64,000 nucleotides of DNA, taken from NCBI RefSeq assembly GCF_030013595.1, contig NZ_CP122768.1. The stretch is one strand, 5' to 3'. Source of the stretch: Escherichia coli. GTDB lineage: Bacteria; Pseudomonadota; Gammaproteobacteria; Enterobacterales; Enterobacteriaceae. Made by a program: the position numbers and the translations under genes. Numbering within the stretch: position 1 is the stretch's first letter; each line of letters starts with the position of its first letter. Shown here one piece after another: positions 25,208 through 30,973 of the stretch. The notes below the pieces were generated by a model, which worked only from the letters and a program-made list of their open reading frames with translations, was not told the origin of the DNA and searched no databases.

Positions 25208-26710
25208 TTATTCATCAATTCGCGGATGTTGCTGCACCAGGCGGGTACGTTTCGCCTGCAAATCGGCAATCTCGTGGTCAATATCATCGATTTTCTGCTC
25301 GATATTATCGTAATGCTCGACGAGAATTTCCTTCGCTTCCTGTATATCTGACGCCGCCGGTGTCGCACCTTTCAACGGACGATTTGCCGTCTCTTTCATG
25401 GTTACGCCGGTGATTAAACCAACCACCGCCACTACCATCAGGTAATAGGCAGGCATCATCAGATTCTGCGAGCTTTCGACCAGCCAGGCCGCCAGTGTTG
25501 GCGTCAGACCGGCAACCAGCACCGAAATATTAAATGCCGCCGCCAGCGCGCTGTATCGGATATGCGTCGGGAACATCGCTGGCAAGGTAGAAGCCATAAC
25601 GCCCGTAAAGCAGTTAAGGATCACCGCCAGCATCAGTAACCCGGCAAAAATCAGGCCGATGACGTTACTGTTAATCAGAATAAACGCCGGGATCGCCAAC
25701 ACAAACAGTGCAACACTACCAAGAAGCACAAACGGACGACGGCCAAAACGGTCACTCAGCAAGCCCATCACCGGTTGAACAAACAGCATACCGATCATAA
25801 TAGCGATAATAATCAGCACCCCGTGGTCTTCGGAGTAATGCAGGTTATGCGACAAATAACTCGGCATATAGGTCAGCAACATGTAGTAAGTCACGTTGGT
25901 AGCAATTACCAGACCAATACATGTCAACAGGCTGCGCCAGTGTTTGGTGGCAATCTCTTTAAACGAGACTTTCGGGCCATCCTGCAAACCTTCGCGGTCG
26001 CCCTGTTCCAGTTTATCAACATGCTGCTGGAACGCCGGAGTCTCTTCCAGCGCATGGCGCAGGTAAAGCCCGATAATCCCTAACGGCAGAGCAATAAAGA
26101 ACGGAATACGCCAGCCCCAGTCGAGGAAGTTCGCTTCGCCGACAATGGTCGAAATTAACACCACCACGCCCGCACCCAGCACAAACCCGGCAATAGAACC
26201 GAAGTCCAGCCAGCTGCCCATAAATCCACGTTTACGGTCAGGGGAGTATTCCGCAACAAATATCGACGCCCCGGTATATTCACCGCCGACCGAGAAACCT
26301 TGTGCCATCTTACAGATCAACAGCAGAATCGGTGCCCAAATACCAATCGTGTCGTAGGACGGTATTAAGCCAATACAGAAGGTACTGATCGACATAATCA
26401 CAATAGTGATAGCGAGGATCTTCTGGCGACCATATTTATCGCCCAACATACCAAAGAAGAGTCCACCAAGCGGTCGAATCAGAAAGGGAACGGAGAAAGT
26501 GGCAAGTGCAGCAACCATCTGCACGCTGGGGTCAGCCCCCGGGAAAAAAACTTTACCTAATGCGTAAGCAACAAAACCATAAACACCAAAATCAAACCAT
26601 TCCATTGCATTACCCAGTGATGCTGCGGTAATGGCTTTACGCAGTTTACCGTCATCAATAATGGTGACATCACGAAGGGTAATTGGTTTTACTTTTTTCC
26701 TTTTCAGCAT
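25208..26710 (-). CDS. proP: Proline/glycine betaine:H+ symporter, osmosensing MFS transporter
   Basis: ORF track 25208..26743; the ATG at 26710 (MLKRKKVKPITLRD) gives 500 aa; MFS signature and C-terminal coiled-coil tail (DIDHEIADLQAKRTRLVQQH). Confidence 0.92.
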   Translation of the reverse strand: MLKRKKVKPITLRDVTIIDDGKLRKAITAASLGNAMEWFDFGVYGFVAYALGKVFFPGADPSVQMVAALATFSVPFLIRPLGGLFFGMLGDKYGRQKILAITIVIMSISTFCIGLIPSYDTIGIWAPILLLICKMAQGFSVGGEYTGASIFVAEYSPDRKRGFMGSWLDFGSIAGFVLGAGVVVLISTIVGEANFLDWGWRIPFFIALPLGIIGLYLRHALEETPAFQQHVDKLEQGDREGLQDGPKVSFKEIATKHWRSLLTCIGLVIATNVTYYMLLTYMPSYLSHNLHYSEDHGVLIIIAIMIGMLFVQPVMGLLSDRFGRRPFVLLGSVALFVLAIPAFILINSNVIGLIFAGLLMLAVILNCFTGVMASTLPAMFPTHIRYSALAAAFNISVLVAGLTPTLAAWLVESSQNLMMPAYYLMVVAVVGLITGVTMKETANRPLKGATPAASDIQEAKEILVEHYDNIEQKIDDIDHEIADLQAKRTRLVQQHPRIDE

Positions 26711-26973
26711 AGCTTTCCTCGCAGAGTTGGCCCATTTCCGCAAACGCCAGAAAAATCAGCGCGACGGCCGCAAAAGGGGAGCGGGAATTGCAGGATGCAA
26801 TCTCTGTAACAAGCGTAGCGGGTTTGCTTACACCCTCCGGTTAAGGAATGTACAATCAAACCAGTTGACGCCTGAATTGGGCAGTTAATGACCTTTTTAC
26901 CCTACCAGTGTTTAAATTTGTGATCAACTTCACACATGTATTTCGTTTAGGACTCATTGGTGTAACTGATTAT

Positions 26974-27852
26974 TTACACCAGATTTACAGAGAAGATTTC
27001 CTCGACCATTGCCCCCGCCAGACGCTGCGCTGAACAGAGTCGTGGCATCCCCAGTGCGACAGTTCGCCAGCGTTGGGTCACTGACCAGCAAACGGGTTGT
27101 TTATCTGCCGTGGTCCACTTTCCCAGCCAACTTAAAAAATCAGCATGATCCCCGCCCGTCGGAATGGTCGAAGAGGCAAACCACTGATGGTAATAGTGAC
27201 GCGTGGTCGGTGCCGCATTGATACTCTCTGCCAGATGTTGTGTCGCTTTCTCGCGCAAATCACCCAGCAACAACGCCACCGCTTGCGGGCTTCCCAGACG
27301 GCAGGCATCGCCAAATGCCCCCCAGCGCAACTCCTCCAGAACGATAAAACAGCGCCCAGGCAACGACCAGGCGTTATACGCCCCAGCACGCCAGCGGGTA
27401 AAAATTTGCTCGCTCTGTTCACCCGCCTGCACCAGTAGGCCTCGTTGCGTTAACGCCTTTTCCTTCCAGCGACAACGGGCTGAAAACCACTCATACAAGG
27501 CGGCAATTTGCTGGGGGAGCTCAGGGAAAGCAGAGTGCTGGCGGTGATCCATTTTTTGCAGCAGCGCCAGATGCTGCGCGATCTGCGTCAGCGCCAGATG
27601 ACCGGGATCCAGCATCGACGCCAGTTTTTCCACCAATGTCAGACGCAGGCTAAGCGGCGCATTTAACATCCCGCCGTTCGTCCATGCCTGAAGCTGCACA
27701 CGCGCAAGAAGTTCCTGCATCAGTCGTTCACGAAACTGCTGCTGATGGGCTTGTGGATGGCGGGCATCATCGCCCTGCGCCAGATCCACTAAAAAGCGCG
27801 GATGAACCGACTCCAGCACGCGACCGGGGCCGTCCAGTAACGTCTTGGTCAA
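26974..27852 (-). CDS. yjcZ: Uncharacterised protein, co-oriented and start-overlapping with crfC
   Basis: ORF track 292 aa; start is a TTG overlapping the crfC stop (TTGA), suggesting translational coupling. Confidence 0.8.
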   Translation of the reverse strand: MTKTLLDGPGRVLESVHPRFLVDLAQGDDARHPQAHQQQFRERLMQELLARVQLQAWTNGGMLNAPLSLRLTLVEKLASMLDPGHLALTQIAQHLALLQKMDHRQHSAFPELPQQIAALYEWFSARCRWKEKALTQRGLLVQAGEQSEQIFTRWRAGAYNAWSLPGRCFIVLEELRWGAFGDACRLGSPQAVALLLGDLREKATQHLAESINAAPTTRHYYHQWFASSTIPTGGDHADFLSWLGKWTTADKQPVCWSVTQRWRTVALGMPRLCSAQRLAGAMVEEIFSVNLV

Positions 27853-30077
27853 TATCGTTCTGCCGTGAAAAGTGTTTGAATATCATCGCGTAACAGCTGA
27901 GCGTCGGTGTAAATCCAGCTGTGAGTCATCACAGCCTGCTGCAATTGCTGCTGCATCAGCCTGACCACCGATTCATTTTGTTGACGCAGAGCCAGGCTTT
28001 CGCGTAAACGCGTCTGTAATTCCGTCAAACATGAAGCGAACTCAGCGAAAAAAGTATTCATGCCTGCCGTAACAGATTCATCGACCTGCTCTGCCAGAAC
28101 TTTAGCCATTTGTTGGCAATAAAGATCGACTTCTGCGCTTAATGCTCGTTGCAACACACTGTAATCAACCGTCTCTGTCGGGGATTTCTCATTTCCCCGT
28201 CCCCAGTCGGGCTGATTCAACCAGCGCGAAAAAGTCTCACGCACAACGCCTAAACGCGTGCTCTGCTCGTCCGTTGCTTCCTGGCGCGAAATGACTTCAC
28301 TGAACAGCTGGCGAGTGTTGAAGTGGGGAACTACGCCGTGAAAAACAGGAAAATGAAACCCAGGACGAAACCCTGACTCGCTCAATTCCATTTTGATTTG
28401 TTGCTCAATGGGGCGAATAACATCGGTTAACACCCGGCAAAGGGTGGATTCCAGCTCGGCAAAACGCAGCGTAAAGTCGCGACTGATGGTGTTCTGCGCC
28501 GTCTGTAACAGTGTCTCACAGCGGGTACGAATCTCGCTTAACGGCTCCGAATCATCCTGAAACAAGGCGGCAAACTGCGCATTCAGCGCATCTTGCTGTT
28601 GACGCAGAAAGTGGTTGGCGGAGGTCAGGGCCAGCTCGATTTCATGTTTAATCTCGCCGCTCACCTGCGCCTGATTGAGTTGCAATAGCTGCAAACTTTC
28701 TTCGACCTGATGGATATTTTGCCGCAATTGTTCACAAGCGACGTTTAACCCGTGCGCACGAAAATCCAGGTATTCCCGCGCCTGCTGCGCGTAATTCAAC
28801 AGTTTATGCGCGGCAGATCGCAGAGCATACAACGAGGCGTTAGCGTAAGCGGCATGAAGCAACGCCTGAATTGGCTGGGCGAACAGCGAATCTTCCCACA
28901 ACTGATCGGCAGCATGACGAATATGTTCGAGGTCCGCCAGATCGGCATGACGCCAGCGCCTGCCGAGCGCGGCATGGGCAAAATCTTCCACCCAGCGTTG
29001 TTGCTCTGGCGGTGGTAACTTACCGTTGTTGGCTAACTCATGGCGCGCCCGATTCGCCAGGTAGCCCCACATCGACGACACCGGAAATATCTGCTGTGGC
29101 GTAATACAGCCTTTCATCAGCGTCCCGGAAATCAGTGCCCGCACCTGGTCGGCGTCGTCACTGTTACGATCCTGTTGATCGAACTTATTGACCAGCACAT
29201 ACAGCGGCACCGATTGCCCCACCGCCAAAATCGCCTCACGGACCTCTTCATCGGAGATCGATTTCAGTTGCGTATAATCCAGCACCGCCAGTACCGCCGA
29301 GGCGCGAGCCAGCTGCTGGTTAAGCATTTTTTGCAGATGCGGTTGCCCGGCTTCATTTGGCCCGGGGGTATCCAGTAACGTCAACTGACCGGGATAACTC
29401 TCCAGCCCCGCCAGATGGACAAACTCCACTTCAATCACGGGAATATGCTCAATGGCGGCGTAAGCAGAAAAAGGAAAATCGACGTCCAGCGCCTTCGCCA
29501 GTCGCACCAAATCATTCAAACTTTTCAGACAATGAAAAATAGGCTGGGCACCCAGATAATATTTTTCGAAAGCGACGCCATTTTCGATCCGCTGCATAAG
29601 CGCACGCATATCTTTATCTATTTCCAGCACATCGGTCAGATGCTTAATATCGCAATCACGCAGGCGCTGTTGTAATTTTTGAATTAAACAATCGATTGGC
29701 GCGACATGTGAAAAATGCAGTACCGGTTCCTTTTGCCCGGGCGTATGGCGAATAAGCGTCGGCAGCGCAGTCATTGGGCGATTACGATTAGGCAGAACCT
29801 CCGTACCAACAATGGCATTAATGGTGGTTGATTTCCCTGCTTTCATGGTACCGACAATCGCCAGCACCATTTCCAGTCGGGAAATTTTACGCAACTCATT
29901 ATTCAGCATCGCGTGACGTTCGGCGATATTAGGCTGACTCCAGGGTAAAGCCAGTTGTGGCGCATCGTCTCCGGGGACAGAGAGAGGCATTTTTTCCAGT
30001 AACTGCAACTGTTGGCGAGAAAGCTGTAACAGGCGTTCAGCCTCCTGACTTAACTCATACAGGGTCTGTGTGTACAT
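27849..30077 (-). CDS. crfC: Bacterial dynamin-like GTPase (clamp-binding sister replication fork colocalisation protein)
   Basis: ORF track 742 aa, ATG at 30077 (MYTQTLYELSQ); P-loop GTMKAGKST; long predicted coiled-coil regions; recalled as YjdA/CrfC. Confidence 0.88.
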   Translation of the reverse strand: MYTQTLYELSQEAERLLQLSRQQLQLLEKMPLSVPGDDAPQLALPWSQPNIAERHAMLNNELRKISRLEMVLAIVGTMKAGKSTTINAIVGTEVLPNRNRPMTALPTLIRHTPGQKEPVLHFSHVAPIDCLIQKLQQRLRDCDIKHLTDVLEIDKDMRALMQRIENGVAFEKYYLGAQPIFHCLKSLNDLVRLAKALDVDFPFSAYAAIEHIPVIEVEFVHLAGLESYPGQLTLLDTPGPNEAGQPHLQKMLNQQLARASAVLAVLDYTQLKSISDEEVREAILAVGQSVPLYVLVNKFDQQDRNSDDADQVRALISGTLMKGCITPQQIFPVSSMWGYLANRARHELANNGKLPPPEQQRWVEDFAHAALGRRWRHADLADLEHIRHAADQLWEDSLFAQPIQALLHAAYANASLYALRSAAHKLLNYAQQAREYLDFRAHGLNVACEQLRQNIHQVEESLQLLQLNQAQVSGEIKHEIELALTSANHFLRQQQDALNAQFAALFQDDSEPLSEIRTRCETLLQTAQNTISRDFTLRFAELESTLCRVLTDVIRPIEQQIKMELSESGFRPGFHFPVFHGVVPHFNTRQLFSEVISRQEATDEQSTRLGVVRETFSRWLNQPDWGRGNEKSPTETVDYSVLQRALSAEVDLYCQQMAKVLAEQVDESVTAGMNTFFAEFASCLTELQTRLRESLALRQQNESVVRLMQQQLQQAVMTHSWIYTDAQLLRDDIQTLFTAERY

Positions 30078-30478
30078 AGAAAATTCTTCCTTAAAGCAAA
30101 TTTTGTTACTTTTATTTAGCCAGATTGTTTTTGAGTTCTGTTTTCGGCTTTTATAATTACTGCAAGAAATAATTTTATATTTAGAGTGTTGTTTTTTATT
30201 AGAATAAATAACGTCTTCCGATACGTTTAAAACGTCAGAAAGATAAAAATATCATTTGAATTAAAAAAAGAACAAGTAGAGCATTAACCTTATCTTAAAT
30301 AATAAATGGAGGCAAAAAGATTATTTTCTTTTTGCGTTTCCTTTCAAATGAAAACGATCGTCGTCTAAAATCAGCAGTACCCCCGACAAACTCAGGGATT
30401 TTGTGTATAATTGCGGCCTTTTTCGGCAATCTGCCGTTTTTTGGCGCTTTTGCCCTGCTGACTTTTGAGGAAATCCAC

Positions 30479-30814
30479 ATGTCATTACCACACTGCCCAA
30501 AATGCAACTCCGAATACACCTACGAAGATAACGGCATGTACATCTGCCCGGAATGTGCCTACGAATGGAACGACGCAGAACCTGCACAGGAAAGCGACGA
30601 GCTGATCGTTAAAGATGCTAACGGCAATCTGCTGGCTGACGGCGACAGCGTTACCATCATTAAAGATCTGAAGGTGAAAGGTAGCTCTTCGATGCTGAAA
30701 ATTGGCACCAAAGTGAAAAACATCCGCCTGGTTGAAGGCGACCATAACATCGATTGCAAAATCGACGGTTTTGGTCCGATGAAACTGAAATCTGAGTTTG
30801 TGAAAAAGAACTGA
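30479..30814 (+). CDS. yjdM: Zinc-ribbon protein PhnA/YjdM (alkylphosphonate utilisation-associated)
   Basis: ORF track 30332..30814 starts at an upstream alternative codon; the ATG at 30479 ([26 protein letters not shown]) gives 111 aa with a CxxC...CxxC zinc ribbon. Confidence 0.9.
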
Positions 30815-30832
30815 TTGTATTGTGATCGGTAA

Positions 30833-30908
30833 GCCGGATAAGGCGCTCGCGCCGCATCCGGCAACGATGCCGACAGCCTGATGCGACGCTGACCGCGTCT
30901 TATCAGGC
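30833..30908. repeat. REP elements (two units) between yjdM and yjdN
   Basis: gccggataaggcgctcgcgccgcatccggc and gcctgatgcgacgctgaccgcgtcttatcaggc read directly. Confidence 0.7.
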
Positions 30909-30973
30909 TTCCCTCTCATCTGTATAAATTTCGAACTACACTTAACTGGCTTCTCTTAACTGAGGTCACCATC

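Follow-up and report, generated by a model that had tools for sequence, protein, structure and literature searches.

What is the function of two overlapping genes in the middle of a 64,000-nucleotide stretch of Escherichia coli DNA (contig NZ_CP122768.1, assembly GCF_030013595.1; this whole stretch is called the window below), and do they form a membrane-remodelling or defence module? The original prediction, made from the sequence alone, described a dynamin-like P-loop GTPase, CrfC/YjdA, followed by the partner protein YjcZ without an assigned function, and named such pairs as candidates for membrane remodelling or, in other contexts, defence. Our analysis indicates that the locus is very probably the E. 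coli core operon rdcA-rdcB (crfC/yjdA-yjcZ), with GTP-gated activation of the diguanylate cyclase DgcE by RdcA and RdcB as its best-supported function. The pair is already known, and the locus has been characterised in published work.

The open reading frame (ORF) listing and the raw sequence confirmed two consecutive ORFs; the coordinates, lengths and TTGA overlap given for them originally were all correct, and the strand, left unstated then, is the minus strand. The 742-aa protein matched the NCBIfam equivalog NF007368, 'clamp-binding protein CrfC', with 1595 bits (cutoff 1146) over residues 1-742 of 742, and its residues 72-277 matched the Pfam family Dynamin_N (E 2.6e-18). No Pfam domain was found in the C-terminal half of CrfC (the C-terminal 400 residues). 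YjcZ is a full-length member of the Pfam family PF13990, 'YjcZ-like' (residues 21-287, E 4.7e-143, 476 bits). Because of these three matches, both ORFs are regarded as real genes and not chance reading frames, and the matches agree with the proposed order of a CrfC/YjdA-type GTPase followed by YjcZ. The GTPase motifs GTMKAGKST (residues 76-84), T103, DTPG (236) and NKFD (297) could all be read in CrfC. The features of the locus are as follows.

27849..30077, minus strand: rdcA (crfC/yjdA, b4109 orthologue), ATG start, 742 aa, dynamin-like GTPase
26974..27852, minus strand: rdcB (yjcZ, b4110 orthologue), TTG start, 292 aa, all-alpha partner protein
27849..27852, minus strand: TTGA overlap (4 nt) of the rdcB TTG start with the rdcA TGA stop; the plus strand reads tcaa
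28077..28104, minus strand: intragenic FliA (sigma-28) promoter in rdcA, driving rdcB, TAAAGTTC-N11-GTCGATGA(A), by 28-mer identity to the published site
29826..29852, minus strand: codons of the P-loop (G1) GTMKAGKST, residues 76-84, including K82, by sequence reading
29769..29771, minus strand: codon of T103, the catalytic threonine of G2, by alignment
29943..29957, minus strand: beta-clamp-binding motif 41-QLALP, CrfC residues 41-45, as defined in PMC6374313
30078..30478, minus strand: AT-rich spacer separating the divergently oriented rdcA and yjdM, holding the rdcA Shine-Dalgarno sequence and presumably the rdcA promoter

The pair is collinear with b4109-b4110 of strain K-12, with 45 differences over 3104 nt (98.6% nucleotide identity), corresponding to nine amino-acid differences in RdcA and 11 in RdcB. 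This is in line with the earlier remark that nothing beyond the known K-12 gene pair could be seen. The annotation of K-12 MG1655 lists the two genes, with the identical 4-nt overlap, as rdcA (b4109) and rdcB (b4110) and describes each of them as 'regulator of diguanylate cyclase'. A megablast search with positions 26700-30400 gave hits to the locus in 5417 of the 5426 complete E. coli genomes (99.8%); in E. coli genomes the genes are annotated as 'crfC' and as 'rdcB: diguanylate cyclase regulator RdcB family protein'. In some E. coli assemblies one protein of 438-442 aa (P0020-P0022) combines a Dynamin_N with a YjcZ domain; it is 97-99% identical to YjcZ over residues ~82-292 and looks like the product of an in-frame deletion joining the RdcA N-terminus to the RdcB C-terminus.

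The view of YjcZ as a protein without assigned function is outdated, as it was renamed RdcB in 2019 and is a co-activator of DgcE (PMC6510439; PMC13031359). In the work of Pfiffer, Sarenko, Possling and Hengge (PLoS Genet 2019), for which Girgis et al. was the starting point, deletion of yjdA and/or yjcZ phenocopied a dgcE knockout in a non-additive manner, the phenotypes compared being macrocolony matrix, CsgD, csgB::lacZ and cellular cyclic di-GMP (c-di-GMP) (PMC6510439). Both proteins were required for DgcE-dependent production of c-di-GMP, CsgD and curli. In two-hybrid assays RdcA self-associated, bound RdcB tightly and bound the N-terminal MASE1 domain of DgcE; RdcB bound neither itself nor DgcE (PMC6510439). 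The RdcA-K82A variant, which does not bind GTP, was fully active, and RdcA-T103D, which binds GTP without hydrolysing it, was inactive and lost the interaction with DgcE, from which the authors concluded that nucleotide-free RdcA is the activating form; for RdcB they suggested a role as a GTPase-activating or nucleotide-release factor (PMC6510439). In an independent transposon screen from 2026 based on sorting by Förster resonance energy transfer, mutants with low c-di-GMP were enriched for dgcE, rdcA and rdcB insertions, which makes rdcA and rdcB positive regulators of c-di-GMP in that screen as well (PMC13031359). Another FliA target, ynjH, located outside the window, is reported to be strongly associated with RdcA/RdcB-DgcE in a c-di-GMP screen (PMC13031359, PMC4183435). 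Like rdcAB, dgcE is a core gene, present in 5416 of the 5426 complete E. coli genomes.

According to the literature, RdcA is a soluble, self-associating dynamin-like GTPase tightly bound to RdcB. In its nucleotide-free form it docks on the membrane-embedded MASE1 domain of DgcE and is proposed to pair two DgcE molecules, so that their GGDEF domains can make c-di-GMP. This turns on csgD, curli and cellulose via PdeR-DgcM-MlrA, and brakes the flagellar motor via YcgR. As GTP-bound RdcA is inactive, GTP hydrolysis is needed for reset, and the proposed input signal is the drop in cellular GTP on entry into stationary phase. RdcB acts as an obligatory co-activator, with a suggested GTPase-activating or nucleotide-release function.

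The conservation of the pair was followed in a species scan, in which one genome per species was searched with an enterobacterial YjcZ alignment and the best 80 loci were kept. These belong to Enterobacteriaceae, or to assemblies labelled otherwise that carry enterobacterial sequence, and among the genera are Escherichia, Citrobacter, Enterobacter, Kosakonia, Leclercia, Lelliottia, Phytobacter, Trabulsiella, Yokenella, Pluralibacter, Superficieibacter, Atlantibacter and Franconibacter; neither Salmonella nor Klebsiella was represented in these best 80 hits. A crfC homologue was located directly upstream of yjcZ on the same strand at every one of the 80 loci. A lack of co-conservation, named beforehand as a possible refutation of the pairing, was therefore not observed. 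In an alignment of the window protein with 78 full-length CrfC orthologues from the species loci, the P-loop GTMKAGKST including K82, T103, DTPG and NKFD were invariant in all 79 sequences. Orthologues from outside Escherichia were on average 47% identical to the window protein in residues 1-60, compared with 83% in the G domain and 53% in the C-terminal half.

The overlap between both genes was kept in 76 of the 80 loci. The junction reads ATGA in 72 and TTGA in three, all three being Escherichia loci; TGATG was found once, and four loci have a TAA-nn-ATG arrangement. The homologous yjcZ start is ATG in 77 loci and TTG in the three Escherichia loci. Since the YjcZ N-terminus MTxxLLDGPGR is conserved from residue 1, and no alternative upstream in-frame yjcZ start was found in the 80 loci, the TTG start is taken to be real. 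On this comparison, the TTG is an Escherichia-specific change from an ancestral ATG, and the overlap itself is ancestral. With regard to gene order, yjdM lies divergently upstream in 78 of the 80 loci and proP downstream in 68. In many non-Escherichia genera the unrelated gene kdgT, encoding a 2-keto-3-deoxygluconate permease, is located on the opposite strand between rdcB and proP (L005:7925-8935 in Citrobacter and L037:7913-8908 in Enterobacter); it is absent from this position in Escherichia and in the window. A third operon gene in the ~1.7 kb rdcB-proP gap of these other genera was considered and rejected, the gap being occupied by the opposite-strand kdgT, and in none of the 80 orthologous loci was a patatin gene or another additional operon gene detected.

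Two features bear on the expression of rdcB, its start and a promoter inside rdcA. The TTG is not preceded by a good Shine-Dalgarno sequence (…CACGGCAGAACGATATTGACC…), and an overlap combined with a weak TTG and a poor Shine-Dalgarno sequence is the classical arrangement for termination-reinitiation coupling. Ribosomes that end translation of rdcA could reinitiate at the weak rdcB TTG via the 4-nt overlap, so that translational coupling of both genes is plausible from the arrangement of the junction. In addition, a FliA site identified inside yjdA by chromatin immunoprecipitation sequencing drives yjcZ and was listed as '(yjdA)yjcZ' in Table 2 of Fitzgerald et al. 2014, who also reported that a FliA promoter earlier predicted upstream of yjdA was wrong (PMC4183435). 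FliA-dependent activity of the intragenic yjdA site was confirmed with a lacZ fusion (bioRxiv 10.1101/188474). The window contains the published 28-mer TAAAGTTCTGGCAGAGCAGGTCGATGAA verbatim at 28104..28077 (minus strand), at a distance of 252 nt upstream from the TTG. Two mRNAs thus supply rdcB, the rdcA transcript, on which it is the distal cistron, and a sigma-28 transcript of its own.

The promoter is also conserved beyond E. coli. The pattern TAAAG[CT]TT-N11-GTCGAT was found at the identical offset (-252) in ~68 of 79 species loci, with a variable spacer, and in a shuffle control 13 of 300 shuffles reached at least 12 of 16 matches. Conservation extends to third-codon (synonymous) positions, an indication that the promoter itself is under selection. 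It would supply an extra rdcB-only transcript when the flagellar class 3 genes are on, and its likely purpose is to tune the RdcB:RdcA ratio under this condition; this stoichiometric purpose, like the translational coupling, is what we infer from the arrangement of the locus. An in-frame methionine of CrfC, M673 (window ~28059..28061, minus strand), is located ~15 nt downstream of the FliA -10 element and is conserved in 74 of 79 orthologues. One may speculate that M673 is an internal start that preserves the hand-over of ribosomes to rdcB on the FliA transcript, or it may be merely a conserved residue.

Structure prediction of YjcZ, which had been proposed as a check on the pair, was performed with AlphaFold2 on the basis of 57 diverse family members; the resulting model replaced one built from 23 close sequences (predicted local distance difference test score, pLDDT, of 68). 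It gave a confident all-helical fold (pLDDT 90.1, predicted template modelling score 0.90) and no recognisable solved analogue. A Foldseek search of the model against the PDB returned a best E value of 0.53 with a template modelling score of ~0.2, a search against the viral database BFVD a best E value of 0.94, and the sequence-profile search of the PDB with the diverse YjcZ alignment coiled-coil compositional matches only. Family-wide, the residues W154, W177, G178, G181, P253 and P270 are invariant, within the signature LEELRWGxFGD.

Several points weigh against a simple acceptance of the DgcE function and of the expression scheme. The predicted fold of YjcZ, for which no solved analogue was found, matched no GTPase-activating protein or guanine nucleotide exchange factor. 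The RNA around the junction folded no more strongly than shuffled sequences (z = -0.63), with the TTG unpaired; structure-gated coupling thus finds no support, as the fold contains no start-occluding structure. The FliA transcript lacks the rdcA start, and de novo initiation at the TTG must therefore be allowed. The gene dgcE itself (MASE1-PAS-GGDEF-EAL) is located ~2 Mb away, outside the window, and we infer its presence in this strain. The interactions and phenotypes are taken from the literature and lie beyond the reach of sequence analysis, and deletion of yjcZ alone caused no motility defect (Fitzgerald et al., PMC4183435). Finally, a second role, in clamp binding and nucleoid partition, has been published for RdcA/CrfC (PMC6374313).

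This second role has to be weighed together with a possible defence function, for which the wider YjcZ family must be considered. Searched exhaustively, 1.84 billion cluster representatives yielded 199 YjcZ-family clusters, many of them of ~300 aa and 22-35% identity. The genomic context was read for nine representatives at no more than 32% identity, on metagenome and genome contigs (L082, L083-L085, L086, L087-L089, L091-L096). In each of the nine, a gene for a patatin-like phospholipase follows directly and, where the contig reaches far enough, a Dynamin_N gene precedes; the genes mostly overlap by 4 nt. The sources of this triad include Methylomonas koyamae, Pontibacterium granulatum and a metagenome-assembled genome of Moraxellaceae, and among the neighbouring genes are those for PhdYeFM/PIN, HicAB, HEPN, bpMoxR with VWA, a WYL regulator and a NERD/UvrD helicase. 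One YjcZ-family cluster, with 4088 members, comes from E. coli, where the triad consists of a dynamin family protein (794 aa), an RdcB family protein (301 aa) and a patatin-like phospholipase (356 aa) and is present in 2614 of the 5426 complete genomes (~48%), on a CP4-44-like island beside antirestriction genes, DUF932, yeeT and cbeA/cbtA. The dynamin of this E. coli operon shares 34% identity with full-length CrfC (E 6e-122), and the YjcZ-like protein 30% with YjcZ. The name 'diguanylate cyclase regulator RdcB family' given by the annotation pipeline PGAP to triad proteins is probably over-propagated. A study from 2026 already treated this triad as a putative phage-defence system of the dynamin type, with strong up-regulation in Kapi1 lysogens, and noted ~30% identity to the core RdcAB (PMC12922286). 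PADLOC v2 contains no model for this triad, and a dynamin-YjcZ-patatin operon is absent from the window.

If the main job of the GTPase lay in chromosome biology, it would bind the beta sliding clamp via the N-terminal QLALP, hold sister forks together and serve nucleoid equipartition, with YjcZ as an unrelated or accessory passenger; we consider this possible but rather unlikely. CrfC was described as a beta-clamp-binding protein that keeps sister forks colocalised through the motif 41-QLALP, and both deletion of crfC and the Q41A substitution led to anucleate cells, with CrfC foci seen at the nucleoid poles (Ozaki et al. 2013; PMC6374313). The window protein carries this motif including Q41, and the equivalog name in NCBIfam refers to the same activity. 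However, among the aligned orthologues QLALPW including Q41 occurs only in the E. coli sequence of the window and is absent from the 78 others; two further Escherichia species have PLTLPW at the equivalent positions, and V[LQ]PLHF is the sequence of most other genera. The first 60 residues are also the least conserved part of CrfC (47%, against 83% for the G domain), whereas the partner gene and the GTPase motifs, unlike the clamp motif, are universally conserved. The Q41-dependent clamp motif is thus recent and lineage-restricted, and the GTPase with its partner ancient, for which reason the RdcAB function is favoured as the conserved one; clamp binding in E. coli is not disproved by this. 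Pfiffer et al. pointed out that clamp binding is GTP-independent, that the in vivo data were mostly obtained with plasmid-borne genes and that the knockout grows without a defect, and they regarded the clamp role as possible moonlighting (PMC6510439). The clamp model moreover leaves the obligatory YjcZ partner unexplained. The clamp role may be a lineage-specific moonlighting function, and the two functions are not mutually exclusive.

Far less probable is a present-day role of the pair as an anti-phage or membrane-stress module, in which a dynamin-like remodeller or sensor would work with an adaptor as in Eleos, DynA or the dynamin-YjcZ-patatin operons. The full-length homology of RdcA and RdcB to the first two triad genes found in nearly half of the E. 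coli genomes, the location of all nine distant relatives in such triads, several of them beside toxin-antitoxin, HEPN, bpMoxR/VWA, WYL or NERD-helicase genes, and the published description of triads as lysogen-induced putative phage-defence systems (PMC12922286) speak for it, as do weak PADLOC matches of CrfC to LeoA and LeoBC. These matches are partial, however, scoring 23.6 bits and covering only G-domain residues 230-313 for LeoA and residues 231-566 for LeoBC; YjcZ had no PADLOC match (E<=1) and no PHROGs match. The window locus carries no patatin or other effector, rdcB being followed by proP, and it is a core pair, present in 99.8% of E. coli genomes, with the fixed synteny yjdM-rdcA-rdcB-proP across the species loci (yjdM in 78 and proP in 68 of 80). 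RdcA has been described as soluble and devoid of a membrane-binding motif (PMC6510439, PMC6374313), and no phage phenotype has been reported for rdcAB. The membrane-remodelling or defence candidacy is hence not supported at this locus, which is core, syntenic and effector-less, with LeoA/LeoBC matches of only ~24 bits; the remark about other contexts fits the paralogous operon. An intermediate view, which we hold to be improbable, is that the core rdcA-rdcB is a domesticated, patatin-less remnant of a mobile dynamin-YjcZ-patatin conflict (anti-phage) system and may keep an infection- or envelope-sensing input. An ancestral GTPase-YjcZ complex would then have sensed a membrane or infection cue and licensed a phospholipase effector, and in Enterobacteriaceae the patatin gene would have disappeared, with the output of the sensor redirected to the DgcE MASE1 domain. 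The contrast between nine of nine patatin-linked distant relatives in defence-like neighbourhoods and 80 of 80 enterobacterial chromosomal loci devoid of patatin is compatible with this. Should domestication be true, RdcAB might answer phage or envelope insults, and not the GTP level alone, via c-di-GMP and biofilm formation.

With DgcE activation retained as the preferred function, the window locus in itself matters little, as it is a textbook K-12 pair with a published function, and a function for the partner, originally listed as having none, was published in 2019. The genetics, the two-hybrid interactions, the K82A and T103D phenotypes and the activity of the FliA promoter are from the literature. 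The present analysis adds the conservation of the pair, of the overlap, of the FliA promoter and of the GTPase motifs, the YjcZ model, the restriction of QLALP to E. coli and the patatin-linked distant relatives. The wider YjcZ context is of moderate interest to researchers working on defence systems and on c-di-GMP signalling, and was already flagged in 2026 (PMC12922286).

As for the surroundings, the rdcA start is preceded by the Shine-Dalgarno sequence AAGGAAG, and a sigma-70-like element, TTGAAA-16-AATAAT, is located upstream of rdcA at 30347..30320 on the minus strand; this is a single match to the consensus only. On one side the pair is flanked by proP and basS, on the other by yjdM (phnA), yjdN, phnC and phnD, as in K-12. 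Downstream of yjcZ a 263-nt spacer is followed by proP; the terminator scan there gave nothing convincing, and an Rfam search of positions 26500-30600 returned no match. The yjdM-yjdN spacer (window 30815..30973) has a length of 159 bp, compared with 657 bp in K-12 MG1655, an indel of ~500 bp.

In comparison with the known systems, the locus is closest to RdcA/RdcB of K-12 (PMC6510439), with which it shares the gene lengths, the TTGA overlap, the yjdM and proP flanks and the FliA 28-mer; the differences are allelic only, apart from the ~500 bp shorter yjdM-yjdN spacer nearby. The dynamin-YjcZ-patatin triad (PAI-CFT073-aspV, 'island 8', CP4-44-like) has the same gene order, the 4-nt overlaps and the YjcZ signature LEELRWGxFGD in common with rdcA-rdcB. 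It differs by a third, overlapping patatin gene and by its location on mobile islands, while rdcA-rdcB has no patatin gene and is core and syntenic; the triad also occurs in other Gammaproteobacteria (Methylomonas, Pontibacterium, Moraxellaceae). Eleos (LeoA/LeoBC), like RdcA/RdcB, has a G domain of the dynamin family and is encoded by a multi-gene operon. The Eleos anti-phage system was reportedly described by Millman et al. in 2022, and LeoABC of enterotoxigenic E. coli, reportedly, by Michie et al. in 2014. Both Eleos partners are dynamin-like GTPases, whereas RdcB has no P-loop and is all-alpha. The window locus is not situated in a defence island and, as a core pair in fixed synteny, is not accessory. 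The bacterial dynamin-like proteins (BDLPs) of Nostoc (PDB 2J68), Campylobacter (DLP1/2, 5OWV) and B. subtilis (DynA) share the Dynamin_N motifs G1-G4 and self-association with RdcA. CrfC resembles solved BDLPs in sequence only around the P-loop (residues 71-124; E 1.8e-6 with 2J68). Unlike the BDLPs, RdcA is reported to be soluble and to lack a membrane paddle, and its known output is the activation of a cyclase by protein-protein contact, not the fusion or fission of membranes.

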